Shown piece after piece: positions 1,411 to 63,675 of a stretch of 64,000 nt of DNA. The first letter of the stretch is position 1. Each line of letters starts with the position of its first letter. The DNA is from a virus. Below the pieces are notes generated by a model that saw only the letters and a list, made by a program, of their open reading frames with translations, searched no databases and was not told the DNA's origin. A program made the position numbers and the translations under genes. Location of the stretch: the IMG/VR virus record IMGVR_UViG_3300031521_000011, positions 32,001-96,000 of that record. One strand, given 5' to 3'.

Positions 1411-1840
1411 GTTTATCCTTCCTTCCTTTTGAATATTGTTTATAGAGCTCCATTACCTTTATCATGGCCGGATGATCATCAGGTAGGTCAACGCTTTCCG
1501 CAACCTTGAAGAGAGCAATACTTGCCATGATGATCCTCACGCTCCAGAATATGACCATCAAGCTGGTGGGCTTGTAAATCATTCTGAACCATCCTCGAAC
1601 CATTGTGCACAAGTTGTTAAATATTACCCTCTGGATCTTTGGATCTTTAGAAGCCAATGACACTGCCATCATGCTCATAAGGAATTCCTGATTGAGCTTT
1701 ATTCTCCGAGCACCTTCTTTGCGCCCTTTTGATTCCAAATCAAGAGCGATCACTTTGATCGCATAGTCCAGGTCATCCAGGTGGCCTTGTTTCAAAAACC
1801 GAAGCTCTCTGTGGATTTCATAGTCTTCCAAGTCATTCAT
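1394..1840 (-). CDS. hypothetical protein
   Basis: 148-aa ORF with GGAGGGG RBS just downstream of the phage promoter motif. Confidence 0.75.
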   Translation of the reverse strand: MNDLEDYEIHRELRFLKQGHLDDLDYAIKVIALDLESKGRKEGARRIKLNQEFLMSMMAVSLASKDPKIQRVIFNNLCTMVRGWFRMIYKPTSLMVIFWSVRIIMASIALFKVAESVDLPDDHPAMIKVMELYKQYSKGRKDKHETNN

Positions 1841-1858
1841 GGTATCCCCTCCAGTGTG

Positions 1859-1873
1859 TTTTATTACTTATAC
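1859..1873 (-). promoter_or_regulatory. phage-specific (putative early) promoter GTATAAGTAATAAAA
   Basis: exact consensus copy between a terminator and an RBS; one of about 17 copies, all on the minus strand. Confidence 0.8.
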
Positions 1874-1876
1874 GGC

Positions 1877-1913
1877 AAAAAAAAGAAATAGGGAGTCGAT
1901 AATATCGACTCCC
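1877..1913 (-). terminator. intrinsic terminator
   Basis: GGGAGTCGAT/ATCGACTCCC stem plus T-tract. Confidence 0.75.
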
Positions 1914-1918
1914 TTCTG

Positions 1919-2428
1919 TCATAAATCGTCAGGGTGTTTGATGCCTAACATTTCACATGCTTTGCGCAGCGCCGGGCGGCCATACTGCGGATACAGTGAG
2001 TCGTCGTTGAGTACTTCCGCGACATCTGGCCTATCCAGGCATTTCATCCAAGCTGAGAGCTTGGAGATGCTTCTGCCGGCAGACAACCCTCGCTGGTCAA
2101 ATGCCTTCATCCAGGCAAATACCATATAATCCAAGAAATCTTGGACTGCCTCTTTGACATCTGTAACCTGTGTCCAGGTCTTCTTTCCAGCCAGAACTTC
2201 GGCAACGTAGTCGGCGTCAAGGTGTGGACTGGCGTCATCGAATGATACAAAATTAGCTGCGACCTCAAAACCAAACCCAAACACATCATGCGTGTCTTCC
2301 ATGCATGCCTTCGCGGCCTCAAGGTTGATTGAAAGTTTATTGTTGGCAATGAACTCATCATTTACCGGGATACGCGGCTCATCTCCGTCAGGGCACTTCC
2401 TCATGTATTCCACAGCATTATCCTCCAA
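1919..2428 (-). CDS. hypothetical protein
   Basis: 169-aa ORF in a minus-strand operon. Confidence 0.65.
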   Translation of the reverse strand: MEDNAVEYMRKCPDGDEPRIPVNDEFIANNKLSINLEAAKACMEDTHDVFGFGFEVAANFVSFDDASPHLDADYVAEVLAGKKTWTQVTDVKEAVQDFLDYMVFAWMKAFDQRGLSAGRSISKLSAWMKCLDRPDVAEVLNDDSLYPQYGRPALRKACEMLGIKHPDDL

Positions 2429-2436
2429 GATTTATT

Positions 2437-2622
2437 TTACCGAATTTCCTTCAGGAAGCCTTCCAGTTTATCCAGACTTTCTAGCACCTCTGGTAGCACC
2501 AGAAATATTCCGGCCGCCAGCATACCGATGCCCAGGCTACTGATTGCTAAAACCTCGCACCCCTTTCTGACAGGGGATACCCTCGTTATGGGTGCAATCT
2601 TCCGTTTGATCTTTAATGGCAT
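2437..2622 (-). CDS. small membrane protein
   Basis: 61 aa, GGAGGT RBS, one hydrophobic helix. Confidence 0.6.
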   Translation of the reverse strand: MPLKIKRKIAPITRVSPVRKGCEVLAISSLGIGMLAAGIFLVLPEVLESLDKLEGFLKEIR

Positions 2623-2638
2623 TTCGCTTACCTCCTGC

Positions 2639-2731
2639 TTATTTTCCCAACTTAATGGCGCCGGTTAATAATGACTGAGCCAGAACCAGAATGGCCACAA
2701 GGGCGATGTCCTTATTCTTACTATTGCTCAC
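2639..2731 (-). CDS. 30-aa hydrophobic peptide MSNSKNKDIALVAILVLAQSLLTGAIKLGK (not in the ORF track)
   Basis: GAGGAGGT RBS, GTG start, directly downstream of the promoter motif at 2755. Confidence 0.6.
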   Translation of the reverse strand: MSNSKNKDIALVAILVLAQSLLTGAIKLGK

Positions 2732-2754
2732 AGTTACTCACCTCCTCATTATTT

Positions 2755-2769
2755 TTTTATTGTTTATAC
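2755..2769 (-). promoter_or_regulatory. phage promoter motif variant GTATAAACAATAAAA
   Basis: near-consensus copy upstream of an RBS. Confidence 0.55.
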
Positions 2770-3060
2770 GGGCATATTGGCATTTTCCCACGATATAGAA
2801 AGTATCATCTTTCCTATATTGCCAAGAATTTTATTCTCAAGTGTATAACCCGCCTGTTCCAGGGTTCTTTGGACAGATTCCATAACCTCAGCAGGAGCAT
2901 CATTAAAGTCATGGCCCGTGGAAGTTTCACCATGCTCCGTTGCGTACCAAATCCTATTTCTGATTATCTCAAGATTTACTGAGATACTCTGCTCTTCTTT
3001 GGTGAGCGTGCGACCCTTATTTTTAAGGGATAACTCAAGTGCCGATTGCGCTGTTATCAT
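2764..3060 (-). CDS. hypothetical protein
   Basis: ORF 2764..3087; likely start MITAQ at 3060. Confidence 0.65.
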   Translation of the reverse strand: MITAQSALELSLKNKGRTLTKEEQSISVNLEIIRNRIWYATEHGETSTGHDFNDAPAEVMESVQRTLEQAGYTLENKILGNIGKMILSISWENANMPV

Positions 3061-3062
3061 GG

Positions 3063-3410
3063 CTATACCTGCGTGAGTGCGCGGCACCCGATGATATGCC
3101 CATCTGCATCCCGGACTACGTCATCCGGAACATACAAGTCTTCCGTGCGACCATTAAGCTTGGCGGCCTGGGCGCAGACGAGGCTCACAATGTAAGCTAC
3201 GCCCTCTTTGGGTTCGGGGAGGTCCTGCAATTCGCCGAAAACCGTGCTATTGACAGGCATTCCATTGACATACCCAACCAGTTCCCGGGTTACAGTAACC
3301 CGGGCCGTTGGAAGCACGGCCCGGATTGCGCAGATAAATTCGTTTCCGCGATCCAGGATATTGACCGGGTGAGGCGTGAGGTTGATAAGAGCGACGTCAC
3401 GATTGAACAT
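3063..3410 (-). CDS. conserved phage hypothetical protein (INLTPH...VRD..G.IIGC family)
   Basis: GGAGGAG RBS; motif pattern resembles a recurrent phage protein family of unknown function. Confidence 0.75.
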   Translation of the reverse strand: MFNRDVALINLTPHPVNILDRGNEFICAIRAVLPTARVTVTRELVGYVNGMPVNSTVFGELQDLPEPKEGVAYIVSLVCAQAAKLNGRTEDLYVPDDVVRDADGHIIGCRALTQV

Positions 3411-3430
3411 TTGATTCTCCTCCAGTGCAT

Positions 3431-3445
3431 TTTTATTACTTATAC
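3431..3445 (-). promoter_or_regulatory. phage promoter GTATAAGTAATAAAA
   Basis: exact consensus, downstream of the terminator at 3459-3483. Confidence 0.8.
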
Positions 3446-3481
3446 GGAGTATATAGTGAAAAAAAGAGGGGCATTTAGCCC

Positions 3482-3799
3482 CTAATAATCGTAGCGGGAT
3501 CTGCGAAGTGCCCGCGTAATCCCCATCAACTCAGAAACCGCCTCCGAGCCTTTGATGAGCTTCTTGATATCCTCATCACTCCGGCCGGATATCTTGAGCG
3601 TCTGCTCGTACTTTTCTTTCAGTACTTCCAGCTCTTGATTGAGCTTCACATTTTCCGCATTGGATACGGTAACTTCGCGTGACAATGCTTCAATGACATT
3701 CTGTTGAGACGCAGTCTTGTGATTGAACTCAGCGCGGAGCTTTTGCATGCGTTTTTCACATTCGGCGTTGATGTCTTTGTTCTTGATATCTTTTCCCAT
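3482..3799 (-). CDS. coiled-coil hypothetical protein
   Basis: start MGKDIK at 3799 after AAGGAGGG RBS and promoter motif; single-gene cassette. Confidence 0.75.
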   Translation of the reverse strand: MGKDIKNKDINAECEKRMQKLRAEFNHKTASQQNVIEALSREVTVSNAENVKLNQELEVLKEKYEQTLKISGRSDEDIKKLIKGSEAVSELMGITRALRRSRYDY

Positions 3800-3816
3800 A
3801 GCGCCCTCCTTGAATA

Positions 3817-3831
3817 TTTTATTACTTATAC
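3817..3831 (-). promoter_or_regulatory. phage promoter GTATAAGTAATAAAA
   Basis: exact consensus, downstream of the terminator at 3846-3870. Confidence 0.8.
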
Positions 3832-3881
3832 TGAATATATGGCTAAAAAAGGGGCGGCTCTGTGCCGCCCATGCGTTAGAA

Positions 3882-4250
3882 TTATTCGTACCCACTACCT
3901 GGCAACAACGGAACCTCATAGGATTCACTCACGAGAAATGTGCCATTTGCGAGCCCTCCCCTTGCATGAAGCTTTCTTGCACATATTTCCATGAACTCAG
4001 TTGGTGAGATGAGCATGACATCAAGAATGGCATCGATCACTGTAACGAGATCGCACAGCTCTATTACCTTCTTGCTGTCATCCTTTTCTCTGTAATATTC
4101 CAGCAGCTCTTCCATGAGTTTCTTGTCAAGCTGCTCCCGATAAGAGGCGTCGTCGAGCGTTATAAAGACACCGTCTCTTTTTTCATCCTTTAACACTTGA
4201 GGTAAATGATCACGGACGAGTTTTCCGTAAACCCTTGTTTTAATTGGCAT
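3882..4250 (-). CDS. MazG-like / phosphoribosyl-ATP pyrophosphohydrolase-family NTP pyrophosphatase
   Basis: KLVRD, KLMEELLEY and ELCDLVTV (EExxE...ExxD) motifs. Confidence 0.8.
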   Translation of the reverse strand: MPIKTRVYGKLVRDHLPQVLKDEKRDGVFITLDDASYREQLDKKLMEELLEYYREKDDSKKVIELCDLVTVIDAILDVMLISPTEFMEICARKLHARGGLANGTFLVSESYEVPLLPGSGYE

Positions 4251-8818: not shown

Positions 8819-8847
8819 TTGATATATTGGAAGATTTATCTTATAAT
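8819..8847 (+). promoter_or_regulatory. sigmaA/sigma70-type promoter
   Basis: TTGATA-17bp-TATAAT. Confidence 0.75.
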
Positions 8848-8870
8848 AAATAAAAAGGATGGTGAGTGTT

Positions 8871-9206
8871 ATGGAAAAGATATCTATGGAAAAAATAGCG
8901 CTCCAGGCCGGTATCAAATATAAAATTTCAGGTAAGGTTCCGAGAGATATTAGGGCCATGCAAACAATAAACTTAGTTAAGAGTAATCTTAAGAAGTATA
9001 TTGCCTTGGTAAACAAGACAAAAAAGGCTACTGGCCTATCGTATAAGTCGGGAGAATTTTCCAATGTTCAGAAGAATATTGAATCTGGAAATGAAACCAT
9101 CAGAATGCTGACAGATATGAGGAAAAATACATTCCCACTCATGATAAAAGCGCATGGTAATAGTAAAAAGACTGTGTTGAAAAAGATTCCGAAAGAGGTA
9201 TTTTAA
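8871..9206 (+). CDS. basic putative virion (internal head) protein
   Basis: MEKISMEKIA N-terminus with KxA motif; Lys-rich. Confidence 0.6.
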   Translation: MEKISMEKIALQAGIKYKISGKVPRDIRAMQTINLVKSNLKKYIALVNKTKKATGLSYKSGEFSNVQKNIESGNETIRMLTDMRKNTFPLMIKAHGNSKKTVLKKIPKEVF

Positions 9207-9207
9207 A

Positions 9208-9711
9208 ATGAATAAGCTTGCAATGTACAAAGAAGCCATCTACAAACGAGCAACACGTGTTGCCAATCCCTATATATTTAGGGGTCCAGCATCGAATGAG
9301 GACCCTGAATCCTACTCAGCCCGGCTGCAAGGCATGTACGATAAGGGTGAGAAAATAAAGAACACCGCCAACATCGCCAGCCTTGGTATTGGTGCTGGCG
9401 CATTGGCGACAAGTATCCTGTCCGGACGCGGTGCATCGAAGCGGCTTAAGCAACTCGCAGACTCTGGCAAACTTGATGCCCTGGCTCTCAAGATCAAGAA
9501 GTCCGTTCCTGAAACCAAGCAAATATTGAGCCGTGCTATTGGACGGCGCATTGGCCTCTCTGCCGGCGCCGGAATCGGTGGAGTACCGGCCATGATGCTT
9601 ACTGAGGGAATCGGTAGAACATTGGCCAACAAATCAACACTCAGATCCATGACACCTGATGAGCGTCAGCGCTATAATGATGTCACCAAAATCAGACACA
9701 ATGGAATATAG
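9208..9711 (+). CDS. putative internal head protein with conserved leader
   Basis: MNKLAMYKEAIYKRA leader; two Gly-zipper segments. Confidence 0.65.
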   Translation: MNKLAMYKEAIYKRATRVANPYIFRGPASNEDPESYSARLQGMYDKGEKIKNTANIASLGIGAGALATSILSGRGASKRLKQLADSGKLDALALKIKKSVPETKQILSRAIGRRIGLSAGAGIGGVPAMMLTEGIGRTLANKSTLRSMTPDERQRYNDVTKIRHNGI

Positions 9712-9723
9712 GAGGAAAAGACA

Positions 9724-10374
9724 ATGGACAAGGTAGCAGCATATAAAGAGGCCATCTACAAGGTGGCTGCAGAAGGAAAGAAAAATCCGAATTCATCTTT
9801 TCTGTTCCCCTTGAACCGTGATTACATCCGTGAGGAGGATTTTTCTCCCGCGTATGCAAAGGCGTCAAGGGAACAGGGCCATATCAATAAGGTTGTTGGC
9901 GGCGTTAGCCTGGGTGGTTTGGCACTTGGTGGAGGCAGCGTAATCGGCGGTTTTGCTCTTGGTGCGAAAACCGCAGACAAGGCACGAAGGCTTGCTAAGC
10001 CAGCTGCCAAGGCTACTCTAAATATCATCAAAAGAGATATTTACAATGGCAGAAGAGGAATGCAGGACCTCTTTAGCCCCGTTCATTCTGAGATAGCTGC
10101 TCACAACGTCCTCAACAAGTCTAAGATTTTTAACGACGTAACGAAGCGACTTCGTCGAAACAACAAAATCGCTGACGGCTTAGTCCTTGGCGGGTTACTC
10201 GTTCCCTCAGTCGCGATGGCAGCTGCCAGTGCTCCATTTATGAAGAAGCGTCAGGAAGTGGTCAAAAGCCTGATGAAGTCAGCGCCCCGCAATAGGAGTG
10301 AGGAGAATTTCAAGGCGGACATGCTAAATCTGCCGAAGAACATCTCTCCAAGGAAACGCCACGCCGATGAATGA
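9724..10374 (+). CDS. putative internal head protein with conserved leader
   Basis: MDKVAAYKEAIYKVA leader; Gly-zipper segment VVGGVSLGGLALGGGSVIGG. Confidence 0.65.
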   Translation: MDKVAAYKEAIYKVAAEGKKNPNSSFLFPLNRDYIREEDFSPAYAKASREQGHINKVVGGVSLGGLALGGGSVIGGFALGAKTADKARRLAKPAAKATLNIIKRDIYNGRRGMQDLFSPVHSEIAAHNVLNKSKIFNDVTKRLRRNNKIADGLVLGGLLVPSVAMAAASAPFMKKRQEVVKSLMKSAPRNRSEENFKADMLNLPKNISPRKRHADE

Positions 10375-10380
10375 TACCGG

Positions 10381-10409
10381 TTTACTTGCTCAGTAAGTAG
10401 TGGTATCAT
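10381..10409 (+). promoter_or_regulatory. sigmaA-type promoter with extended -10
   Basis: TTTACT-17bp-TATCAT with TG motif. Confidence 0.6.
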
Positions 10410-10433
10410 AGCAGTCGAAAGGAAGTGTTAATT

Positions 10434-11165
10434 ATGGCAACGGGTAAAAACCTTGTTGATATTCTTGTTCCGAAGATCGGAAGCGGTTATGTATATGGTG
10501 GGCAAGGCCAGATTTGCACGATGGCCATGATCAACACACTCATGGCCCGGTACGGACGCGATCACTATTACTTTAAGGGTTATAGTGCCGAGAAGTGGAT
10601 CGGCAAGCCCTCCTTTGACTGCTCCGGCTTTGTCAGCTGGGGGCGCTACATGCTCGGATTGAACCCAGGCCACAAGAGTTACAGCGCCAATGGCTATTAC
10701 ACCATGACAACTCGCATCTCCAAGCTGCAGCTCTTGGCTGGCGATCTCTGTTTCATCGTGAACAGCGATGGCCACGCTACCCATGTTGGTGTATATATGG
10801 GGAACGGTTACGTTGTTCAGGCTGCCAGCACAAAATCAGGCGTTATCAAAACGAAACTTGGTACCGGTTGGAGCGGCTACGGCAGACTGAAGGACCTAGT
10901 GCAGGTTGTCGTGAAACCAACCGTTGAGTATACCGAGATTAAGTTTGGAGCAAATGGCCCCGAGGTTTATCAGATGCAAAAGGCGCTGGCCCTCCTGAAC
11001 TACAACCCAGGTCCGCTCGACGGAGTCTTTGGGCCACTGACACTGACCGCAGTGAGGGCATTTCAAAAAGGAAACCAGCTGTACGTGGATGGCCGCCCTG
11101 GTCAGCAGACTCTCAGTGTACTTTATGGTACCGCAGATGTTGTTCCAAAGAAGGCTGCTGCCTAA
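10434..11165 (+). CDS. NlpC/P60 peptidoglycan endopeptidase with C-terminal PG-binding domain (endolysin or virion lysin)
   Basis: YVYGG, FDCSGFV and HVGVY motifs; PG_binding_1-type VYQMQKAL...DGVFGPLT..AVRAFQ...VDG..G..T. Confidence 0.9.
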   Translation: MATGKNLVDILVPKIGSGYVYGGQGQICTMAMINTLMARYGRDHYYFKGYSAEKWIGKPSFDCSGFVSWGRYMLGLNPGHKSYSANGYYTMTTRISKLQLLAGDLCFIVNSDGHATHVGVYMGNGYVVQAASTKSGVIKTKLGTGWSGYGRLKDLVQVVVKPTVEYTEIKFGANGPEVYQMQKALALLNYNPGPLDGVFGPLTLTAVRAFQKGNQLYVDGRPGQQTLSVLYGTADVVPKKAAA

Positions 11166-11175
11166 ACCGAAGTCC

Positions 11176-11216
11176 AAAAAAAAAGATAGAGCCCGGCCAT
11201 ATGGCCGGGCTGTTTT
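11176..11216. terminator. bidirectional intrinsic terminator
   Basis: AGCCCGGCCA/TGGCCGGGCT stem flanked by A- and T-runs between convergent genes. Confidence 0.8.
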
Positions 11217-11641
11217 TATGATAGGGATCCCATTTCTTTGAGCATGGACAGCTTTACCACCAGGGATACATCTCTTCTTTCCATGTATGGACAGATGATA
11301 TTCTGGAAGATATCATCCCTTCTAACAAGGGCGACGGCGCGTTGATTCCTGGTCATCACCAGGTAATTGTCCAGCGCAGCCACTAATATGTCATTGAGGG
11401 ATACGTCAAATCCCAGATCAGCAGTTTCCGAAACCAGTTTTGTCATCAAATCTTCAGGGATTCTGATCTGAAGATTAACGAACGGCTCTACTGCTGGAGG
11501 ACATTCGACCTTAACCTTCGTCGGCTCCACATAAGTGACGACAATTGGCTCCTTAGGTCTGCGCTTGAACCCAGGCTTTGGACCAGGCTTTTTCCTTTCG
11601 ATGACGTCATCGACATTAACACCTTTGTCGTTTTTATCCAT
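11216..11641 (-). CDS. ribbon-helix-helix (Arc/CopG-like) DNA-binding protein with basic AT-hook-like N-terminal segment
   Basis: RKKPGPKPG; VNLQIRIPEDLMTKL...SLNDILVAALDNYL. Confidence 0.65.
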   Translation of the reverse strand: MDKNDKGVNVDDVIERKKPGPKPGFKRRPKEPIVVTYVEPTKVKVECPPAVEPFVNLQIRIPEDLMTKLVSETADLGFDVSLNDILVAALDNYLVMTRNQRAVALVRRDDIFQNIICPYMERRDVSLVVKLSMLKEMGSLS

Positions 11642-11659
11642 GATAACCCCTCCATTGTG

Positions 11660-11674
11660 TTTTATTGCTTATAC
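11660..11674 (-). promoter_or_regulatory. phage promoter GTATAAGCAATAAAA
   Basis: consensus match upstream of a GGAGGGG RBS; overlaps the -35 of the divergent promoter. Confidence 0.75.
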
Positions 11675-11693
11675 TCCGTTTTTACCTTATAAT
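11665..11693 (+). promoter_or_regulatory. sigmaA-type promoter
   Basis: TTGCTT-17bp-TATAAT. Confidence 0.75.
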
Positions 11694-11715
11694 AAATCGA
11701 GTAGAGGTGAGTAAT

Positions 11716-12462
11716 ATGGAAAAGATATCTCTTGAAAAAGTCCATCCTGCCCTTAAAGAGATGCAGGATTCGTTTGAAGATCCGGTTTCAAAGAAAGTGG
11801 CTACGATGATTGCCACTTCTCATGAATATAAAACTCCCAACATAAAAGCCGGGCACCACTTTACGAGGAATTACAGATGGAGCAATGGCACGATGAAGAT
11901 CAGTGACCTTCAGGGTATCAACAAGCCGATCACGCAGGAAAAGGTTGATAGCCTTGTGAAAGCCATTGGTAAGTCTGGCAGGGTAGATCCTTTCGTTGTC
12001 GTGAACCAGTTAGATGCCATCCGCCCACAGACGCCCGGCAAAAAAGTATTGATCGACGGACATCACCGGCTGGAGGCCTGCAAGAAACTCGGCATCGATG
12101 AAGTCCCTGTATATCGCGGCGACTACACTGGCGATGCTCACAGGGATATTGAGGAATTAAAGAAGGCAGCCAGCTTTGCGTCTGTCTATAATTTTGTTTA
12201 CAATAATCCATACCTTGGTATGGGAAAGGAAGCCTCTCAAGATGGCATCTCGGAAGTCCGGCGGCTCACAAAAGATCGCCAATTTACCATTGACCCAATC
12301 GTTGCAGGTGAGTTGGGCGGGCTTGGCCTTATGGGAACCTCTCTTATCATCAAGAAGAGACTTCCGTCAAGGAGTACCTTGCTTCGCAACGCTGGTATCG
12401 GCATCGGTCTCGGCAGCGCCGCAATTGGCACGGCTCGCACGATCAGAAAGGGTGAAAAATAA
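11716..12462 (+). CDS. ParB/Sulfiredoxin N-terminal-domain protein, putative virion cargo
   Basis: LIDGHHRLEACKKLG motif; MEKISLEKV leader, KxA sites, C-terminal Gly-zippers. Confidence 0.75.
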   Translation: MEKISLEKVHPALKEMQDSFEDPVSKKVATMIATSHEYKTPNIKAGHHFTRNYRWSNGTMKISDLQGINKPITQEKVDSLVKAIGKSGRVDPFVVVNQLDAIRPQTPGKKVLIDGHHRLEACKKLGIDEVPVYRGDYTGDAHRDIEELKKAASFASVYNFVYNNPYLGMGKEASQDGISEVRRLTKDRQFTIDPIVAGELGGLGLMGTSLIIKKRLPSRSTLLRNAGIGIGLGSAAIGTARTIRKGEK

Positions 12463-13589
12463 TGGGAAAGACTTATATGGAAGAGATGTTCAAAAACGCA
12501 GCAAGCGAAGAGGATGATTTCGCCAACCTTATGGGAAGTCTTAAACATACCAATCGTGATGATTGGGAGAGCGCAGTGACGAAGCATAATCCAAACTGGA
12601 AATATGTCTATCCAGTATCGCCAGATGGTGGAGCTCCATATGTTCTTCAGGAGGGCAATAGATCCAGTGGACTGATCGCCATGCATCACAAGAATGGAAA
12701 AATATCCATTGCTCTCTCTTTTCATCCTGAAGGATTTGATCCAAATGAGCACGTGCGGTCCGTATTTGATGTTTCTGGATCAGGGCGCAGAAACGAAGGC
12801 TTTACACTTGATAATGCTGCATCTGCTAACTTTCATCCCAAGGGTTTTCATGGAGAAGATGCATACAGCGTTACAGATAAAGGGCAAGTTCGCCATGGGC
12901 GTGGTGAGCGCCAGGCGGTAGCTCCTAAAGCGAAACCTCAACCGAAATCCGAACCGAAGGCTGAACCAAAGCCAGAGCCGAAACAGGAACCAAAGACTCA
13001 ACCAAAGCCTGCTGAGTCACAGATGCAACAGGCGTTTTCGCAACCTCAACCAAAAGCAGCGCCACAGCCCCAGCCAGCGCCCCAGGCTGCACCGCAGCCA
13101 CAGGCACAGCAGCCCACCCCACAAGTACAGCCTCAATCCGCGTCGCAGCCACAGGCCCAGCCACAGCCTCAGCAGCAGGCTACACCTAAAGCTCAACCAC
13201 AACCGCAGGCAGCCCCGGCAGCAGCGCCAGTTCCTCCCGTTGCGGCTGCAGAGGGAGTTGAGCAGGCCGCAGCTAAGGAAGCACCACAAGCCGAAAAAGG
13301 CTTGCTTACAGCCATCAAAAAGCTTAAACTATCACCAGGATTAGCGAAGGCTGCACCATGGGTTGGTGGAGGCGTTGCCGGATTAGCGGCGGGCGCTGGC
13401 TTGATGGCGATGAGCAACAAAAAGAAACAGCAAAAGACTGCAGTATATAAAGAAGAAATTTATAAACTGGCTGGCCTGATGTCCGCTCCTAAAGCAGTGG
13501 CAGCAAAGGTACCATCCTTCAGTAAGCCGAAGATCGCAAAAGCGGTAAATCGTGCTCGTAGAGCATCATTCGTAAAATCAATTCATTAG
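12462..13589 (+). CDS. putative internal head protein with Pro/Gln/Ala-rich linker
   Basis: PQ/PKxEP low-complexity tract; Gly-zipper; internal QKTAVYKEEIYKLA motif. Confidence 0.7.
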   Translation: MGKTYMEEMFKNAASEEDDFANLMGSLKHTNRDDWESAVTKHNPNWKYVYPVSPDGGAPYVLQEGNRSSGLIAMHHKNGKISIALSFHPEGFDPNEHVRSVFDVSGSGRRNEGFTLDNAASANFHPKGFHGEDAYSVTDKGQVRHGRGERQAVAPKAKPQPKSEPKAEPKPEPKQEPKTQPKPAESQMQQAFSQPQPKAAPQPQPAPQAAPQPQAQQPTPQVQPQSASQPQAQPQPQQQATPKAQPQPQAAPAAAPVPPVAAAEGVEQAAAKEAPQAEKGLLTAIKKLKLSPGLAKAAPWVGGGVAGLAAGAGLMAMSNKKKQQKTAVYKEEIYKLAGLMSAPKAVAAKVPSFSKPKIAKAVNRARRASFVKSIH

Positions 13590-13598
13590 GAGGAAGTA

Positions 13599-14057
13599 AT
13601 GGATAAGGTTGCATTTTATAAGGAACAAATCTACAAAGTCGCCTATACTTCTGCTGGATATAATAGACTCTATATGACAAAGGACCTTAAAGGCAGAACA
13701 AACGTAAAGTATAAAACACCAAATCGGGTTCCTATGCGCTTTAAGAACGAGCGCGTAGATCCATCAATGTCGATGGTCCCGGCTGGTCCTGTGAAAACGC
13801 ACTCAAATCCCAGCAGACTCAGGCGACTGAGGAAAATAAACAATACTCGCCACGGTCTCAGTAGGGATACGAGAGAAGCAATCCGGCTTGGTGGAGCAGT
13901 TGATTCAAAGGCAGCTAAGGAAATTGCCGAAAAATCATTAGCCCGGGCCGCCAGTAAGGGCATGCCGCTATATGCCGGCGGGGGAATTGGACTTGCTGCA
14001 ATTGCGGCTGCCGCAATTGCAATGAGCAACAAAAAAAAGCACAAAGATGCTGAGTGA
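13599..14057 (+). CDS. putative internal head protein with conserved leader
   Basis: MDKVAFYKEQIYKVA; C-terminal GGGIGLAAIAAAAIAMSNKKK. Confidence 0.7.
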   Translation: MDKVAFYKEQIYKVAYTSAGYNRLYMTKDLKGRTNVKYKTPNRVPMRFKNERVDPSMSMVPAGPVKTHSNPSRLRRLRKINNTRHGLSRDTREAIRLGGAVDSKAAKEIAEKSLARAASKGMPLYAGGGIGLAAIAAAAIAMSNKKKHKDAE

Positions 14058-14068
14058 GGTGGATGGAT

Positions 14069-14770
14069 ATGGACAAAGTAGCTTTTTACAAGGAATATAT
14101 CTACAAGGTTGCCGACGCTTATGATGATATCATCAAGCGTAATGAGGCAAGTAGGCCCAGGATGTATACCGTGAAGCCAAACGGTGAAACAATTCTCGAC
14201 GGATTCATTGCCGACGAAAAATACTCTAAGCCAAATGTGGACCGTACTGTTTCTGGAGTCAAGGATCTGCTGAAAACCAAGGGTGGAAAGCTTAAGGTAT
14301 TGAAGCCATACCTTATTGGCGCTGCTGGCGGCGCTGCCTTGCTTGGGAGCGGCATGTCGCTCATGGAACAACGTCGGAAAAATATGCGTAAGCGCATGCA
14401 TAAATCAGCTTCATTTATTGACAAACTCCTTGGAAAAAAAAAGCCCAAACCCAAGTCTAAGGCCAGACTCCAGTATGATGCTCTGGTAGCAAGCGAAGAA
14501 GCGGCAGAGGCGCGGCGTCTTAAAAGAGAACAGGAAGCTGTTGCAGCCCGGGCAGAGAAATTCAGATCCCAAAGAGGACCTCTTCGACTGACCAGCGGGG
14601 CCTCACAAGCAGCTCCTGCGGCAAAGTCCACAATAATCGATGCAGCACCGACCATTGCAAGAAAGATTCCGAAACAGTTACTCAGGAAGGCCGGGCCGTG
14701 GGCGCTTGGCGGACTTGGTTTAGCCGGGGGTGGTGCGGCAATACTCAGTAGGAAAAAAGAAGACAAATAA
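14069..14770 (+). CDS. putative internal head protein with conserved leader
   Basis: MDKVAFYKEYIYKVA; two Gly-zippers; internal HKSAS. Confidence 0.7.
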   Translation: MDKVAFYKEYIYKVADAYDDIIKRNEASRPRMYTVKPNGETILDGFIADEKYSKPNVDRTVSGVKDLLKTKGGKLKVLKPYLIGAAGGAALLGSGMSLMEQRRKNMRKRMHKSASFIDKLLGKKKPKPKSKARLQYDALVASEEAAEARRLKREQEAVAARAEKFRSQRGPLRLTSGASQAAPAAKSTIIDAAPTIARKIPKQLLRKAGPWALGGLGLAGGGAAILSRKKEDK

Positions 14771-15453: not shown

Positions 15454-15783
15454 TTAGCCCTCCTTTTCCGTGCTTTCCTCGCTGGGTTCGGATGCTGCAT
15501 TCTGCATCATATACGCAACATCGCCTGGCACCGGAATATCCCAGGCAACCTGAACGACCCTATTTATGTCCTGAGGATCTTCCGTGGGATACTCGGTTGA
15601 GTTTCCGGCGATGACATCATATACATACCCAATCAGTTTGCCACCAAGGATACCGACACCTACATTGATTGCGGCATCGAGCGCTCCGGGAATTTGATTC
15701 TTCTTTAAAGCTTGAACGCCGGTGGCGGCCAAGGCGACTGTCATGCCTGCCAGGGCACCGACACGCCTTCCTATTGTTGACAT
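15454..15783 (-). CDS. two-helix Gly-zipper membrane protein
   Basis: VGALAGMTVALAATG and VGVGILGGKLIG; GGAGGT RBS. Confidence 0.7.
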   Translation of the reverse strand: MSTIGRRVGALAGMTVALAATGVQALKKNQIPGALDAAINVGVGILGGKLIGYVYDVIAGNSTEYPTEDPQDINRVVQVAWDIPVPGDVAYMMQNAASEPSEESTEKEG

Positions 15784-15821: not shown

Positions 15822-16097
15822 CTATTGCCCCTCTGTGTTCGTGTTTACGATTGGTGATTCGATAGGTACGATGGGTGTAGCCGATTGTTCCTTATCGAAC
15901 ATTCCGCCGATTGCGCCGCCGATGACAGCTCCTCCTGTTGCGGAAAGAGCCAAGCCTCCGACATATTCAAGGCTTGGCTCTTCAAGCCTTTTTTGCCTGG
16001 CTTTCGCAGAAAAGAATGGAATACCCCATAACAGTACTCCTGCTAGAGCACCGAGCATGCCGCCCAATTCTTGATTGACGGTATTTTTATTTGACAT
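15822..16097 (-). CDS. two-helix Gly-zipper membrane protein
   Basis: LGGMLGALAGVLLWG and GGLALSATGGAVIGGAIGG; AAGGAGGT RBS. Confidence 0.7.
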   Translation of the reverse strand: MSNKNTVNQELGGMLGALAGVLLWGIPFFSAKARQKRLEEPSLEYVGGLALSATGGAVIGGAIGGMFDKEQSATPIVPIESPIVNTNTEGQ

Positions 16098-16120
16098 AAA
16101 TGAAACACCTCCTTTGCTAG

Positions 16121-16135
16121 TTTTATTACTTATAC
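16121..16135 (-). promoter_or_regulatory. phage promoter GTATAAGTAATAAAA
   Basis: exact consensus after the terminator at 16149-16172. Confidence 0.8.
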
Positions 16136-16186
16136 CAACAATGAGCGCAAAAAAGGGGCCCTTGCAGGCCCCCATACTGAATAAGA

Positions 16187-36413: not shown

Positions 36414-37208
36414 ATGGCTGGCAAATATGATGAACTTATCGAAAAGGTAGCTGGCAACATTTTGGCCGAAGCTGCTGAGGAAGATGATCAGGAAGATGAA
36501 GTTGCCGACGAATCTGATGAAGGTGATGAGGGCGACGAAGGCGAATACGAAGACGGCGCTGACGAAGACGGCGACGAGGACGAAGACGGCGACGAAGACG
36601 GTGACGATGAAGACATCAGCGCCGAAGCTGCTGCCATCGACGAAATGGTTATGGAAAAAATCGCGGGCATGGGCGCCGCTGATCGTGCTGCTTTCGCAGC
36701 GAAATATACAGCGCAGGATGCCATGGGCAGGGCAAAGGGTGTTCCCGCATGGGTTCGTGGCGGCGGTGTTAAGAGGACTGCTGGAAAGTATAAGGATGCT
36801 CTTCTTGGCAAGACCAAGGATGACATGGGCCGCACACTCGGCGAATACAAGGCAATAGCCAAGCAGACCAAGGCTGACCATCTGGCGAAGGCCCGCCCCA
36901 GAGCTGCCAAAGAGTCCCAGAAGAAAATGAATGAAAACTTCATCAACCCCCTTCGCAAGAAGGTTTGGGGCGCTCGCGGAGCTACTGCTGCAGCCGCAGC
37001 CGGCATCGGTGGTGGCACATATGCCGCTATCGCTGGATCCAAGAAAAAGCACAACAAGACCGCCAGTGAAATAGTGGGCCGCCTTGAGCAGTACCTGGAA
37101 GAGTCTGAAATGATGAAGCAGGCTGCCGATGAAGTCATGAACGAAGCAGCTGTCATCGAAGATGCGGTCCTGAAGGTCGCCATGGACCTGGGTCTCTTTG
37201 ACGAATAA
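36414..37208 (+). CDS. putative internal head protein with acidic N/C segments and basic core
   Basis: D/E tract; EKVAG, EKIAG, NKTAS and MKQAA motifs; GAGGAGG RBS. Confidence 0.7.
   Translation: MAGKYDELIEKVAGNILAEAAEEDDQEDEVADESDEGDEGDEGEYEDGADEDGDEDEDGDEDGDDEDISAEAAAIDEMVMEKIAGMGAADRAAFAAKYTAQDAMGRAKGVPAWVRGGGVKRTAGKYKDALLGKTKDDMGRTLGEYKAIAKQTKADHLAKARPRAAKESQKKMNENFINPLRKKVWGARGATAAAAAGIGGGTYAAIAGSKKKHNKTASEIVGRLEQYLEESEMMKQAADEVMNEAAVIEDAVLKVAMDLGLFDE
36530..36612 (+). repeat. imperfect GACGAAGACGGC tandem repeats encoding a D/E/G tract
   Basis: repeated gacgaagacggc units. Confidence 0.6.
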
Positions 37209-59290: not shown

Positions 59291-61939
59291 ATGCTCGAAA
59301 AGATGACTACATTCAGAATTAAATTTTCTGACATCGAGATAATCGACGGCGAGTTTATAAAACAGGCGTCGGACAATTTCCTGCCCGAAGGGCATATGTA
59401 TGACCCTGATTTCCTTTACATGAAAGTTCGTGCTGTGTCGGCTGGTGAGTACTGGGGCCCGAATAAGAATGCTGACTTCTTCCCTGAAGCAGAACTTGTC
59501 AAATTCTACAAGACGTTCCTTGATGCTCATGCATTTAAGAACCATGAGAATAAAGATGTCGCCAATGCAATTGGTGATGTTATTTCCGCAATCTGGAATG
59601 ACGAGATGAAGTACGTCGAGCTGTTAATCCGGATTGAGCGCTCTCTGGCTCCGACGATTGTACGTGGCTTTGAAAAAGGCTTCATGACAGATGTGAGTAT
59701 GGGATGCAAAATTTCACATAGCATCTGCTCGAAGTGCGGCAATATTGCAAAGATTCCTTCGCAATATTGCGATCATATAAAGTATCAGAAGCACCATGTT
59801 TCTGACGATGGTGTGCGTATTTACGAAATCAACATCGGTCCTAAGTTCCATGATATCAGCGCCGTGCTGAGTGGAGCCGATAGAACAGCGAAGATGACGG
59901 GGTTGTATATTATGGGAGATAAAGTTGCCTTCACCGAATGGTCAGAGATGTCAAAGACGGCATCCATGGTAGACTCGTTTGCTTCGGAAGAATTTGGCCC
60001 CGGCAATCCTTTCTACAAGGTCGCCTCCGCCAAAGAGATCGAAAACTTCAGCATCAATGCTATTGAGTTCAAAATGGGTGATGATACCTTTAGTAAGGTC
60101 GCCGGCACGAAGCAAGGCCTTATGGACAAGGTTGCTGAGATCAAGAAAGAGATCCAGGCAAAGATCATGTCTGTTGCTCGCGGCGATGCAATGAAAACTG
60201 AAGGGCTCGATGAAGTCATTGATCTTTTTAAGATGTTTTACACAGAATTCCTTACACGCGAACAGTGTGTTGAGATTGGGAAGAAAATCAGCAGCATCGC
60301 CCGCAGGGAACAGATGCCGACTTCGGATGTTTTCAATACCCTGATAGGCATGCTGGAAGTGGCCGGCATAGAATTATCTTCTCTTGAGTTTGATCGCATC
60401 ACAAGCCAGTTTATGGATGGCGATGGTGACAGTGATTGCTGCTCTGGCGCTGATGGCTTCCGTCCTGAAAATTACAATGGGATCAAGCAAGAATCAGATG
60501 ACGCCATATCTGAATTTGGTATGGACGGCGGGCTACCGGCGGCGCTTAAATTACTGAGCATCATCCGTAATGCCCAACATAGAGGTCAGCCTATTCCTTT
60601 AAGTGAAAATCAGAACATGGGCACAAATATGCGCGTTATTATTTCACGCATCAACGCTCCGCAGCCGCCAATACATAATCCTTTGCTGGGCGACGAGATG
60701 ATGGATATGATTCGGCCAATGATTCCAGGCCGCAGTATGTATCGCCAGCATCTCATTCCTCGTGTGCTTCGTATTTCAAAAATGGCATCAACTCCAAACA
60801 TACGCAACCTGGAACATTTCATTGGACCGCGCATTCTGAAGACAGCTGCACAGAAAGATCTCAGCTATGACGCTGCCGGCGCAGCCTCGATGTATGCATA
60901 TGCCCAGTATCAGAAACTTCGCGAGAAGCTTGCGTTCAGCAATTGGCTGGATGATGAGTTTGCAAAATATGCTCACGAATTTGGTGCTGAGGGCATCGTG
61001 AATGAAATCGACAGCCTCGGCTCAATGGAGAAGGTAGCCCTTCTTGGTAAGGGATATACTGTTCGCAAAGCCATGCTGATCGGTGCGCCGCTGACATTCG
61101 GATATTCCGCCGCCCAGCGTGCACGCATGAGAAATGGTGAGAATGTTTCTGGCTTTAACCGCTATATTGCAGAGAATCCGGCAAATGCATTTATGATCCA
61201 GGCTCTTATGGGTCCTGCAGCATGGAAGGGCGGAAAAGCCTTAGCCGCCAAGCTTGGTGGGAAAGCAGCTGTTGCTGGTAAAAATGTTGGTGCATCTCCG
61301 GCAGTACATAATACCAAGAATGTTTGGCGCAATAGTAAGCTACTGGCTGACATCAAGGCTGACCCAACCCTCCAGAGGTGGCACGACTTCTTCACGAAGT
61401 ATTCTGAGGATAGCTCTTATATTCTAACCAAAGAAGCGAGTGAAGCTTTCGAGCACTATGACTCCACTGAAGGTGTGGATATATTCAAGAACGAACAGAT
61501 TGACAAAACTGCCATGGAGAAATTTTCATTGACACAGGTACAGGTGGATTCCATTAAGATGTCGATGATCATGGAATGCATGGAGAAGAGTGCAGCCAGC
61601 TCTGGAATTCTGAGGCAAAATTCTCTCACGAGAAATGATGTCTCAAATTTCATTAAGGTTTGTGCTGAATATCTCTCAGGTGAGGTCACAAAAGAAGCTG
61701 GCGATCTTAAAGATGTGATGATGAACACGGGAAGCGAAATGCTGTTTGCGAATCACAATCTGTCAATGCTACCGATTATGCCTGGAGCAGTTATTGACAA
61801 CGTTATATTCCAGGGGATTTTCAAGGCTTTGGAGAAGGCGGGAGCTAAAGGCAAAAGCAAAGGCGAGGTGGCTACGAACCTCGGGCAGAGCGCAATAAAG
61901 CAAATTCAGCAACCGGCAATTCCACCTATAAAGCCATAA
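59291..61939 (+). CDS. prohead maturation protease with long KxA-rich C-terminal extension
   Basis: N.N.D.F, FKNH.N, DVSMGC (putative catalytic Ser), CSKC..C.H and DISAV motifs; first gene of the head module. Confidence 0.75.
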   Translation: MLEKMTTFRIKFSDIEIIDGEFIKQASDNFLPEGHMYDPDFLYMKVRAVSAGEYWGPNKNADFFPEAELVKFYKTFLDAHAFKNHENKDVANAIGDVISAIWNDEMKYVELLIRIERSLAPTIVRGFEKGFMTDVSMGCKISHSICSKCGNIAKIPSQYCDHIKYQKHHVSDDGVRIYEINIGPKFHDISAVLSGADRTAKMTGLYIMGDKVAFTEWSEMSKTASMVDSFASEEFGPGNPFYKVASAKEIENFSINAIEFKMGDDTFSKVAGTKQGLMDKVAEIKKEIQAKIMSVARGDAMKTEGLDEVIDLFKMFYTEFLTREQCVEIGKKISSIARREQMPTSDVFNTLIGMLEVAGIELSSLEFDRITSQFMDGDGDSDCCSGADGFRPENYNGIKQESDDAISEFGMDGGLPAALKLLSIIRNAQHRGQPIPLSENQNMGTNMRVIISRINAPQPPIHNPLLGDEMMDMIRPMIPGRSMYRQHLIPRVLRISKMASTPNIRNLEHFIGPRILKTAAQKDLSYDAAGAASMYAYAQYQKLREKLAFSNWLDDEFAKYAHEFGAEGIVNEIDSLGSMEKVALLGKGYTVRKAMLIGAPLTFGYSAAQRARMRNGENVSGFNRYIAENPANAFMIQALMGPAAWKGGKALAAKLGGKAAVAGKNVGASPAVHNTKNVWRNSKLLADIKADPTLQRWHDFFTKYSEDSSYILTKEASEAFEHYDSTEGVDIFKNEQIDKTAMEKFSLTQVQVDSIKMSMIMECMEKSAASSGILRQNSLTRNDVSNFIKVCAEYLSGEVTKEAGDLKDVMMNTGSEMLFANHNLSMLPIMPGAVIDNVIFQGIFKALEKAGAKGKSKGEVATNLGQSAIKQIQQPAIPPIKP

Positions 61940-62020: not shown

Positions 62021-62611
62021 ATGCAAGGTTTTTATGATGCATGCAAGGACAATGGTTTCTTTAACGGCAAAACAAAGATTGCCAGCAATGAAGACGCCAA
62101 AAATGCCCTTAACGGTCTGGATCAAGAGCAAATCGACACTCTGGCACAGGCTTTGGGTGTATTTGGCAAGCAGGCTTCCGACGCAGCCGAGGAAAAGTCT
62201 GTCGAGGATAAAGTGACAGATGCCGCAAAGGCCAAGGCTGAAAAAACAGATAAGCCTGATGACAAAAAGGGCCAGGACAAGAAGGACGCCAAGGCTGACG
62301 AAGAGAAGGCCGACCCCGCCACCAGCGAAACTTCTGAGAAAAAGGCATCAGAAGTGCTGCGTGAAATTCTGACTGAGGGTGCAGAGATGGAAGCACAGAT
62401 TGAAAAAGATGCTTTCGAGCGCGCTGGTGAGATGCTTAAGCAGGCCGGGTACAGCGTGGCCCAGTATGTTTACGGCTTTATTGAAGACGAGAAGATCGCC
62501 ACTGTGATCGCCGATGAGGCTGAGAAGATCGCTTCCGAGGAAGACATGCCGGTCCTGCAGGTCGCACGTGATATCGTTACGGAAATCCTTAGCTCCATTA
62601 CTTCCGAATAA
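62021..62611 (+). CDS. acidic scaffold-like head protein
   Basis: at least seven KxA motifs; highly charged; follows the protease. Confidence 0.6.
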   Translation: MQGFYDACKDNGFFNGKTKIASNEDAKNALNGLDQEQIDTLAQALGVFGKQASDAAEEKSVEDKVTDAAKAKAEKTDKPDDKKGQDKKDAKADEEKADPATSETSEKKASEVLREILTEGAEMEAQIEKDAFERAGEMLKQAGYSVAQYVYGFIEDEKIATVIADEAEKIASEEDMPVLQVARDIVTEILSSITSE

Positions 62612-62628: not shown

Positions 62629-63675
62629 ATGAGGCGTATGGAGAAGACAGCGGCTTTAAGGGCAAGAAGCATTTCGCAGCTTGCTGATTTCTTGCGCCGT
62701 GACGCCCGGGGTGTTGAAGGTGGCGATGTCGCCAAGGCAATACGGGGTATGTATAGCAAGGAAGGTGAGACTGGGTCTCTCTTCGTAGACGGAGCGAAAT
62801 GGCTTCTGAACAAAACACCCGGAGTTAAGAAACTGAAGCTTGGGCAGAAAATAGACGATGCCACGAGCCGGTACAAAGATTTTGTTATCAAGCATGATCT
62901 TAAGACCGGAAACTACATGGCAGACAAGCTGAAGAATACCAAACTCAAAAATGTATTTGTCGACAAGCGCCAAGTCAAGATGAATTCAGCGCCAAATGAA
63001 CCGGTTGTAAATTATGAGGTTGAAACGCCAAGTCTCCTCTCTCCGGTCCATAAGGCTAAGAAAGCTATTCTACCATTTGCTGGCGCAATGGCAATTTCAG
63101 ATCTTGGGTACAAAGCTATGAACAAAGAGAAGAGCGGTGAGAACATGCCAGGTGATAATGTGAAAAGTGCCAGCCTCATTAATCGGATTGTGGAAGTCGC
63201 AATGGATAAGACGGCTGACGACGCAGGATCCGTATCTAAGCAGGGCGTGGATTCAGACACGTTGCGCGAATTTGCAAAACTCGCTTTTGAGGCTAGTGAG
63301 ATGCTTAAGCAGGCTTCTGCACAGATCAATGCACAAAAGGTGGAGATCAGCAAGTTGGCCCATGAAAGCGGCATGATGGAACTAGCTTTAATTGCAAAAA
63401 CACGCTCCGGCAGGTCTATCGAGCTGGCTGATGATATGCTCGATAAAGGAATCATTAAGGTCGCCGATTATGAGGACAAAATCGACGATATCATGGAGAT
63501 GGATGACAACGCTTTTGGTGTCCTCAATCAAACAGTAGCCTGTATTAAAAAAGAATCTTCTGACAATTACGGCGTTACTGATTTGACTTTTCTCGAAAGA
63601 GATGATACCATAATTACAGAGAAACCAACGATGCAAGAGAGCATCTCTCAGGAAGCTCGTAAAATCAACAGGTGA
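62629..63675 (+). CDS. scaffold-like head protein
   Basis: MEKTAA, VKSAS, MDKTAD and LKQAS motifs; helical C-terminal half. Confidence 0.6.
   Translation: MRRMEKTAALRARSISQLADFLRRDARGVEGGDVAKAIRGMYSKEGETGSLFVDGAKWLLNKTPGVKKLKLGQKIDDATSRYKDFVIKHDLKTGNYMADKLKNTKLKNVFVDKRQVKMNSAPNEPVVNYEVETPSLLSPVHKAKKAILPFAGAMAISDLGYKAMNKEKSGENMPGDNVKSASLINRIVEVAMDKTADDAGSVSKQGVDSDTLREFAKLAFEASEMLKQASAQINAQKVEISKLAHESGMMELALIAKTRSGRSIELADDMLDKGIIKVADYEDKIDDIMEMDDNAFGVLNQTVACIKKESSDNYGVTDLTFLERDDTIITEKPTMQESISQEARKINR

Follow-up and report, generated by a model that had tools for sequence, protein, structure and literature searches.

A tandem Lys-x-Ala leader on dissimilar proteins of an uncultured phage: a candidate address and cleavage signal for head packaging

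The marking of proteins by a short signal for the phage head and its protease is a principle already known from phages T4, phiKZ and SPN3US. In T4, for which both packaging and cleavage have been proven, the unrelated proteins IPI-III and Alt share a short N-terminal peptide, the capsid-targeting sequence (CTS), which is removed by the head protease gp21; the leader motif also marks the scaffold/core proteins of the phage, and the cargo includes enzymes that likely act early in infection. Cleavage in T4 takes place after Glu in (L/I)-x-E, and the cleavage motif of phiKZ and SPN3US also ends in Glu. Encapsulin cargo-loading peptides are likewise short and portable and steer unrelated cargo into an HK97-fold shell; they are usually C-terminal and uncut. 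In the herpesvirus assemblin (pUL26), the protease is fused upstream of a scaffold part, fusions of this type release the protease just after the protease domain, and the pseudorabies assemblin ends in Ala in vivo, indicating that this enzyme cuts after Ala (PMC4498786). Many head-internal and ejected proteins of phiKZ and SPN3US, including RNA polymerase subunits within the same particle, are reported to be processed at a short motif by a T4-type protease, gp175 and gp245, respectively (PMC5694885, PMC7411985, PMC10052503). Here, a 15-residue leader of the pattern M(D/N)K(V/L)A-x-YKE-x-IYK-x-A (leader 1) is described from an uncultured phage, within a stretch of 64,000 nucleotides (the window) that comprises bases 32001-96000 of the 168,244-base virus record IMGVR_UViG_3300031521_000011 (genome G000). 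A first-pass annotation of the window had proposed that this leader is a portable address tag, which loads variable cargo into the prohead and is then cleaved. With modest confidence, we lean towards the reading that the leader would mark capsid-packaged cargo and is a propeptide which the head protease of the phage would recognise and trim off.

Leader 1 was found, exactly where the first-pass annotation had placed it, at the in-frame start of the plus-strand open reading frames (ORFs) at 9208, 9724, 13599 and 14069, each with a Shine-Dalgarno sequence 6-10 bases ahead of its ATG, and as an internal, in-frame copy at 13428-13472 within ORF 12462..13589. The back-translated pattern has five matches in the window, compared with 0.00 expected in 100 shuffles, and these five sites are the only copies in the whole 168-kb genome. 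The starts with MEKIS(M/L)EK (leader 2) reported at 8871 and 11716 are also present (two matches in the window versus 0.00 expected in 100 shuffles); the whole genome holds five copies of leader 2, three of which lie upstream of the window at genome positions 19402 (an internal copy, inside the SNF2 helicase gene), 19983 and 21359. The codons of the nine invariant leader-1 residues vary from copy to copy, and the differences between leader-2 copies are likewise mostly synonymous; conservation therefore acts at the level of the peptide. The leader is real, beyond chance and selected as a peptide, and a DNA-level repeat was rejected for leader 1 on account of the synonymous-site differences. Conservation at the nucleic-acid level, in which a shared expression cassette (promoter, ribosome-binding site and a start region that enhances translation) or a recombination hot spot copied between genes would yield the peptide as a by-product, derives some support from the four N-terminal leader-2 genes, which share a TATAAT-type box, a spacer, a ribosome-binding site and near-identical first 26 bases. 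This explanation is nevertheless highly improbable, since leader-1 copies differ at most synonymous sites while keeping nine residues invariant, the peptide is retained across relatives that span 31% to 46% G+C, and the internal in-frame copies have neither a promoter nor a ribosome-binding site; all that it would account for is the promoter, the ribosome-binding site and the start region that the leader-2 genes have in common.

Both leaders and all of their variants consist of tandem five-residue units of the form hydrophobic-x-Lys-x-Ala, such as MDKVA, IYKVA, MEKIA, IEKQA and IVKMA, and leader 2 (MEKIS-MEKIA) comprises two such units side by side. Judged by this composition, the two leader types are one kind: the sequences described in the first-pass annotation as a second leader type stand, and their separation from the first type does not. 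That annotation had also correctly noted that leader 1 ends in K-x-A, and had overlooked that its first half, MDKVA, is a K-x-A unit as well. Units were counted in crude gene calls of four genomes, namely G000 and three complete relatives that were compared in full (G001, 152.6 kb, 31% G+C; G002, 166.8 kb, 38%; G003, 160.5 kb, 32%), against within-protein shuffles; the gene calling chose longer antisense frames over ORFs 13599 and 14069, both of which are thus outside the enrichment counts. On the strand that carries the structural genes, the unit is enriched approximately threefold in every genome, with 65 units versus 24±4 on the plus strand of G000, 59 versus 17±4 in G001, 74 versus 24±5 in G002 and 76 versus 21±5 in G003. 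The opposite strand is near expectation in G000 (22 versus 17±4), G002 and G003, and the non-structural plus strand of G001 is also raised (40 versus 19±4). Motifs used as controls showed no enrichment, whether reversed or with a substitution in the unit (Lys to Arg or Glu, Ala to Ser or Gly). Between 13 and 17 units per genome lie in the first 30 residues of a protein, compared with 6-7 expected; the extended consensus reads (E)-[IML]-E-K-x-A-[S/E/A/G]-E, in which the Ala is most often followed by Ser (2.2 times background).

The distribution of the units within G000 is uneven. Eleven are located in an 882-amino-acid (aa) protein encoded at 59291..61939, six in a scaffold-like protein at 62629, seven in an 842-aa conserved protein encoded upstream of the window and four in a 264-aa protein at 36414, in addition to the leader islands; the portal and the 2296-aa RNA polymerase of G000 contain no units, and the tail proteins, which comprise approximately 12,000 residues, do not rise above background. 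The 842-aa protein (genome 14348-16876) belongs to a conserved family of approximately 800-1170 aa with 7-11 units and no Pfam or PHROG match; it and its G001 orthologue (1826-4216) are located directly ahead of leader-protein clusters, and the G002 orthologue has a C-terminal extension with several Gly-rich hydrophobic segments. A 796-aa protein of G001 that had been considered as the portal is instead the G001 member of this family. In the major capsid protein, the first 45 residues are nearly invariant among relatives that are 57-74% identical overall, and read (I/L)KTA(A/S)ET..ADYN...LL..P.G(L/F)EK(I/L/F)A(L/S)EKLP. Two candidates in this region were set aside: GLEKIALEKL, invariant among relatives, was not counted as a site and may be simply part of the N-arm, and the equally invariant IKTA(A/S)E at the N-terminus has its hydrophobic residue one place out of the register of the unit.

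The enzyme proposed to recognise the leaders is the N-terminal domain of the 882-aa protein (59291..61939, plus strand), which is annotated as a head-maturation protease with a long scaffold-like extension on the basis of its fold and of a PHROGs match (head maturation protease, phrog_18299, 5.5e-6). In an AlphaFold model of the protease domain (59291-59980), with a predicted local distance difference test score (pLDDT) of 72.5, residues ~30-206 adopt the fold of T4 gp21 and herpes assemblin; the top Foldseek matches are all proteases of these types, and VIA-align gave Z 10.6 and a root-mean-square deviation of 2.9 over 131 residues to 5jbl_A (gp21) and Z 7-10 to herpes proteases. Residues 1-28 and 207-230 of the model have a pLDDT below 50, and the flanking units of the protein itself are not docked. 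Among candidates for the catalytic His and Ser, His85 and Ser136 are invariant in 10 sequences and His162 is nearly so. The gene sits in the head module, with portal and terminase genes on one side and scaffold and capsid genes on the other, and the modelled fold and this position both fit an assemblin-fold capsid maturation protease domain at 59291-59980. Downstream on the plus strand lie genes for a 196-aa acidic scaffold-like protein with K-x-A units (62021..62611) and a 348-aa scaffold-like protein (62629..63675), of which the latter has the highest unit density of the genome, with six units starting at residues 4-8 (MEKTA).

The scaffold-like extension of the protease comprises approximately 650 residues. 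In an alignment of four orthologues of the protease-scaffold protein (35-38% identity), the units form conserved islands amid variable linkers, with a conserved unit at residues 22-26 and several more further downstream. A unit approximately 12 residues past the protease fold reads MSKTA, IKKVA, LEKVA or LEKTA and is in each case followed by Ser. Among cultured phages, a tblastn search with the protease detected Salmonella phage Arash and Vibrio phages D69, D148 and D181 (E 4e-30 and 7e-29), phage G and the cluster C mycobacteriophages. Just past the protease domain, Arash gp222 and phage G gp19 both have LEKVA, and D148 gene 276 has LQKVA. The enrichment of the unit, its conserved positions and its portability would suit equally well an uncut docking motif, in which the unit would be a short helix that attaches to the inside of the capsid, to the scaffold or to the protease-scaffold fusion, and leaders would tether cargo in the head and remain. 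Precedents would be the cargo-loading peptides of encapsulins and the ends with which scaffolding proteins bind the capsid. We consider such a motif fairly unlikely: a conserved unit stands exactly at the position at which assemblin-type protease-scaffold fusions release the protease (PMC4498786), an Ala ahead of the presumed cut and a Ser behind it agree with where assemblin-fold enzymes habitually cleave, and the occurrence of equivalent modules either fused or split at leaders, described below, is more easily explained by fusions that are cut.

The leader recurs on many proteins of uncultured relatives. The major capsid gene of the phage (genome 96243-97241, just beyond the window end; L004:2244-3239) is 57-74% identical to those on nine IMG/VR contigs (L006-L014), and its nearest counterpart in a cultured phage is that of Bacillus phage G, at 27%. 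Neither megablast of the leader region nor tblastn of the tandem leader matched any of 50,697 phage records. G001 contains 11 leader copies, several of which lie inside large proteins and one of which heads a 126-aa Gly-rich protein encoded immediately after the capsid gene; one G001 protein starts with MDKIAMEKVAMYKEAIYKEA, in which both leader types stand in tandem. An 800-aa polyprotein of G001 (149977-152379; L031:11978-14380, minus strand) begins with an ATP-dependent DNA ligase domain (PF01068, 5.8e-9) and a weak OB domain, which are followed by a leader, a YHGT...GGLRASKG domain, a second leader and a Gly-rich segment. G002 has six copies of the variant MDKIA-x-YED-x-IYKEA, and in an 882-aa polyprotein of this phage leader copies stand between an HAD-like part, a ParB-like part and a third domain. 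Neither the leader-1 nor the leader-2 form was found in G003, in which orthologues (among them the SNF2 helicase and the ParB-like protein, as well as several proteins that are Gly-rich) begin with or contain YKEQIEKQA. A domain of the form (M/L)(Y/F)HNT...GL.ASKA, of unassigned family and similar to the YHGT...GGLRASKG domain, was observed behind leaders in G001, G002, L069 and P0030.

On metagenome contigs, the leader was present on two further SNF2 helicases (L068 and L071), on one ParB-like protein and on other proteins. Leader-bearing SNF2 helicases thus occur in G002, G003, L068 and L071, and the ParB-like protein carries leader 2 in the present phage and leader 1 in an orthologue elsewhere. 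A profile search with the leader was run against 1.84 billion cluster representatives and retrieved 31 proteins at E ≤ 0.001; three false positives were removed, namely the repeat proteins P0010, P0018 (with a helicase-like part) and P0032, leaving approximately 28 clusters in which the match mostly starts at residue 1. A pattern match in L002 was likewise rejected as a chance internal match. Modules that are separate genes in one genome are fused at leaders in another. The spread of the leader, or of a clade-specific variant, over unrelated proteins, genomes and base compositions, including orthologous and non-orthologous proteins of the four complete genomes, metagenome contigs and the ~28 profile clusters, is good comparative support for a portable, interchangeable N-terminal tag on variable cargo, and this part of the earlier proposal was borne out.

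Further features were observed on individual carriers. Among the metagenome carriers P0029, P0033, P0036/P0021 and P0023, a HEIGH zinc-protease-like motif was seen, P0033 is a P-loop protein with weak AAA matches, and two carriers have a J-domain-like HPD motif; these AAA matches, a DnaJ match (0.0029) and, in one protein, weak SUKH matches are all under Pfam cut-offs. The SNF2 helicase of the present phage (genome 17851-19974; L005:2852-4975) has a one-unit leader remnant, MREMLKRA, at its start. An internal MEKISMEKIA joins the helicase to an extension of 190 residues, which is absent from G002 and G003 and part of which resembles the adjacent 299-aa protein.

The carriers in the window had been described as otherwise unrelated, which holds for BLASTP of the leaderless sequences against each other (best E 0.06) and does not hold for their build. 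They share a layout in which the leader and a variable part precede hydrophobic segments that are rich in Gly and Ala; each protein has one or two of these, and a basic cluster comes after each. At the C-terminus, the segments of the proteins at 12462, 13599 and 14069 are alike beyond composition (z 4.4-7.1 versus shuffles), AMSNKKK ends two of these three Gly-rich segments (12462 and 13599), and internal leader copies come directly after a Gly-rich hydrophobic segment. The presence of such segments in every window carrier, together with the holin-like placement of two carriers ahead of a peptidoglycan-binding cell-wall hydrolase, would also be expected if the leader were an amphipathic N-terminal helix unrelated to the capsid, serving membrane targeting, oligomerisation or regulation of late membrane proteins (lysis, holin-like or superinfection-exclusion proteins), with an incidental likeness to scaffold motifs. 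This possibility appears quite unlikely, as the leader also heads soluble DNA enzymes that have no hydrophobic segments (the SNF2 helicases of G002, G003, L068 and L071 and the P-loop protein P0033), the unit enrichment is specific to head-assembly proteins and flat in controls, the hydrophobic segments are weak, Gly-rich and unlike typical holin helices, and the presence of up to 11 carriers per genome, some of them enzyme polyproteins, fits a lysis cassette poorly. No holin family match was obtained among the 9208-11165 proteins in Pfam or PHROGs.

Evidence from virions is available for the cultured relative Arash. In Arash and D148, proteins encoded around the protease are rich in units (one D148 protein has 9 versus 0.5 expected and one scaffold-like protein has 7), the capsid proteins contain GL(V/T)KEA followed by GA at residue 25, and several head proteins have their first unit at a distance of 19-30 residues from the N-terminus; in the capsid, scaffold and protease proteins this distance is 22-30 residues. 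In the Arash and D148 regions examined, no protein was seen to begin with the tandem 15-residue leader. By mass spectrometry, 116 proteins were detected in sucrose-gradient particles of Arash, including the helicase Gp217 with 1148 spectra, compared with 1333 for the capsid protein, as well as Gp213 and Gp224, which are Gly-rich, the unit-rich Gp220, Gp221 and Gp223, and the protease, Gp222 (PMC10585845). Arash Gp217 is 30% identical to the SNF2 helicase of the present phage (E 4e-39). The proposed loading into the prohead and subsequent cleavage are thus linked to the leader indirectly, through the enrichment of the unit at conserved positions in the protease-scaffold fusion and the scaffold-like proteins and through an abundant orthologue of putative cargo in Arash virions. 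The Arash paper mentions neither the motif nor the protease nor processing, and the word "protease" occurs 0 times in its text (PMC10585845).

Our preferred reading, cleavage of a packaging propeptide, can be stated as follows. Leader 1 would be an N-terminal propeptide of two hydrophobic-(E/D/Y)-Lys-x-Ala units (MDKVA...IYKVA), and each unit would serve as a recognition and cleavage signal for the head-maturation protease that the phage itself encodes in the N-terminal part of the 882-aa protein, and which would cut after the Ala. Leader proteins would join the prohead core alongside the protease-scaffold fusion and the unit-rich scaffold proteins, and the leader would be trimmed off at maturation. 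Internal leader copies would split fused genes into the modules that other genomes encode separately, and the observed alternation of fused and split modules at leaders agrees with processing that yields equivalent products. After trimming, the cargo would remain in the head until it exits along with the DNA; it would consist of small Gly-rich membrane-type proteins and a ParB-like nuclease and, in relatives, of the SNF2 helicase and other enzymes. A set of nuclease, helicase, other enzymes and membrane-type segments beside a cell-wall hydrolase fits cargo that exits the head with DNA. Cleavage of the unit and its exact site, packaging driven by the leader and ejection of the cargo are all inferred steps of this scheme.

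Several observations weigh against this reading. Mycobacteriophage Cali has a related protease and no unit enrichment. RNA polymerase, which is thought to be packaged in this phage group, is a 2296-aa protein without a leader or a unit, and the leader is therefore not the sole route into the head. In the ParB-like protein of the window, Ser and His occupy the Ala positions of the two units. We know of no established cleavage sites for proteases of this subfamily. Repeated helical mini-domains in the Arash and D148 scaffold proteins have units on their flanks; part of the unit enrichment could thus stem from a conserved element of the fold rather than from cutting sites, and these flanking positions also suit the docking motif considered above. 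Moreover, the Arash table reports 100% "coverage" for the unit-rich Gp221, Gp223 and Gp224 (PMC10585845), which, if these are literal sequence coverages, would mean that uncut forms are present in virions, which would suit the docking motif. Because the preparation was a single sucrose gradient containing 116 proteins, the Arash coverage is not decisive either way.

A broader proposal can also be framed, in which a clade of RNA-polymerase-carrying phages (the present phage, its uncultured relatives, Arash and Vibrio D69/D148) would use a previously undescribed hydrophobic-x-Lys-x-Ala code of the head protease as both address and cutting site, loading exchangeable effector modules that are injected with the DNA. 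Each module would consist of a leader, an enzyme or variable part and then a Gly-rich membrane segment, and both single genes and polyproteins that are cut at leaders would supply such modules. The system would amount to programmable effector delivery by phages, with a tag that could be reused for protein packaging. We offer this proposal tentatively and regard it as rather doubtful at present.

Compared with T4, the present system has in common a short N-terminal peptide shared by unrelated proteins, the marking of scaffold/core proteins by the leader motif, the same protease fold (Z 10.6) and cargo that would include enzymes likely to act early in infection. The two differ in that the peptides have no sequence likeness, the units end in K-x-Ala and not in the T4-type (L/I)-x-Glu (the control motif with Glu for Lys was not enriched), and the proposed cut is after Ala in hydrophobic-x-K-x-A; in addition, the leader holds two units, copies also occur between polyprotein domains, Gly-rich hydrophobic segments are present in the carriers, the protease continues into the ~650-residue scaffold-like extension, and packaging and cleavage, proven in T4, are inferred here. 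The resemblance to the herpesvirus assemblin lies in the fusion of an assemblin-fold protease upstream of a scaffold part (PMC4498786) and in a conserved site right after the protease domain, with Ala before the presumed cut and Ser often after it. Arash and Vibrio D69/D148/D181, which have a virion RNA polymerase, share with the present phage a homologous protease and dense K-x-A units in head-module proteins, and Arash additionally has a helicase orthologue and Gly-rich proteins in its virions (PMC10585845). The scheme differs from encapsulin loading in the sequence of the tag, its N-terminal position and its presumed removal. Two places ahead of the cut, where Lys stands here, a hydrophobic residue is the consensus in herpes sites, and, to our knowledge, herpes proteases do not use their site as a portable tag on many cargo proteins; we also know of no description of a single shared leader of such length, or of a polyprotein arrangement, in phiKZ or SPN3US. 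Neither the literature searched nor the Arash paper was found to describe the motif, a leader of two units, its placement between polyprotein domains, the Gly-rich module or the fused protease-scaffold.

If the preferred reading is correct, assemblin-fold head proteases would have a new cutting and addressing specificity (Lys-x-Ala versus x-Glu in T4), and a simple sequence rule would predict the head-packed, host-delivered proteins, including nucleases, a helicase and membrane-active proteins, of a large and nearly unannotated phage group. For bringing foreign proteins into capsids, the leader would offer a second tag of unrelated sequence, and the fused or split modules bounded by leaders would represent polyprotein processing that is uncommon in tailed phages. 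The idea is directly testable in cultured relatives such as Arash and Vibrio D69/D148.

The leader genes of the window form a plus-strand block (8871-14770) of two operons, each led by a promoter-like box and a MEKIS(M/L)EK gene, after which the leader-1 genes follow. Operon 1 is headed by a TATAAT-type -10 box (TTGATA-N17-TATAAT), a spacer and a GGTGA ribosome-binding site (8842..8870), which with the first 10 codons make up a cassette common to the MEKISMEKIA genes, and its first gene (8871..9206) encodes a 111-aa protein that starts with the two units of leader 2, MEKISMEKIA, and has no Pfam or PHROG match. It is followed by genes for a 167-aa protein (9208..9711; leader 1, MNKLAMYKEAIYKRA) and a 216-aa protein (9724..10374; leader 1, MDKVAAYKEAIYKVA), each with two Gly-rich hydrophobic segments, and by a leaderless gene (10425..11165) with NlpC/P60 peptidase (PF00877, 5.2e-12) and PG_binding_1 (PF01471, 1.2e-16) domains, whose product is a cell-wall hydrolase, either virion-associated or an endolysin. 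Operon 2 is headed by a second TATAAT-type promoter-like box (TTGCTT-N17-TATAAT) with a ribosome-binding site (11688..11715) and begins with a gene (11716..12462) for a 248-aa ParB-like nuclease-type protein that starts with MEKISLEKV (leader 2), has a C-terminal Gly-rich hydrophobic segment and matches ParB-like PHROGs (best 4.4e-7); its orthologues elsewhere (L073 and P0015 among them) carry leader 1 or lie within polyproteins. The next gene (12462..13589) encodes a 375-aa protein in which a linker rich in Pro and Gln comes after the N-terminal domain and leads to a Gly-rich hydrophobic segment that ends in AMSNKKK, the internal leader 1 and a 43-aa basic tail; with the leader placed directly after the Gly-rich segment, this protein looks like two modules joined at a leader. 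The operon ends with genes for a 152-aa protein (13599..14057; leader 1, MDKVAFYKEQIYKVA), whose C-terminal Gly-rich segment ends in AMSNKKK, and a 233-aa protein (14069..14770; leader 1, MDKVAFYKEYIYKVA) with two Gly-rich hydrophobic segments, for which the ESM Atlas model is of low confidence and disordered and has no named relatives. Apart from the NlpC/P60 and ParB-like matches, searches of Pfam and PHROGs returned nothing for this set of proteins.

Between the two operons, a 141-aa gene of unassigned family lies alone on the minus strand (11216-11641), and downstream of the block two small minus-strand proteins (15454-15783 and 15822-16175) have Gly-rich hydrophobic segments without a leader. 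The arrangement TATAA(A/T)TAAA...AGGTG...ATGGAAAAGATATC is found ahead of 8871, 11716, genome 19983 and genome 21359. The four MEKISMEKIA-type genes concerned share a cassette of approximately 55 bases (window 8842-8896 and 11688-11741; genome 19953-20008 and 21330-21384), which comprises the TATAA(A/T)TAAA box, a spacer, the AGGTG ribosome-binding site and nearly identical first codons, and in which the first 15 coding bases are tandemly repeated (ATGGAAAAGAT...ATGGAAAAGAT).

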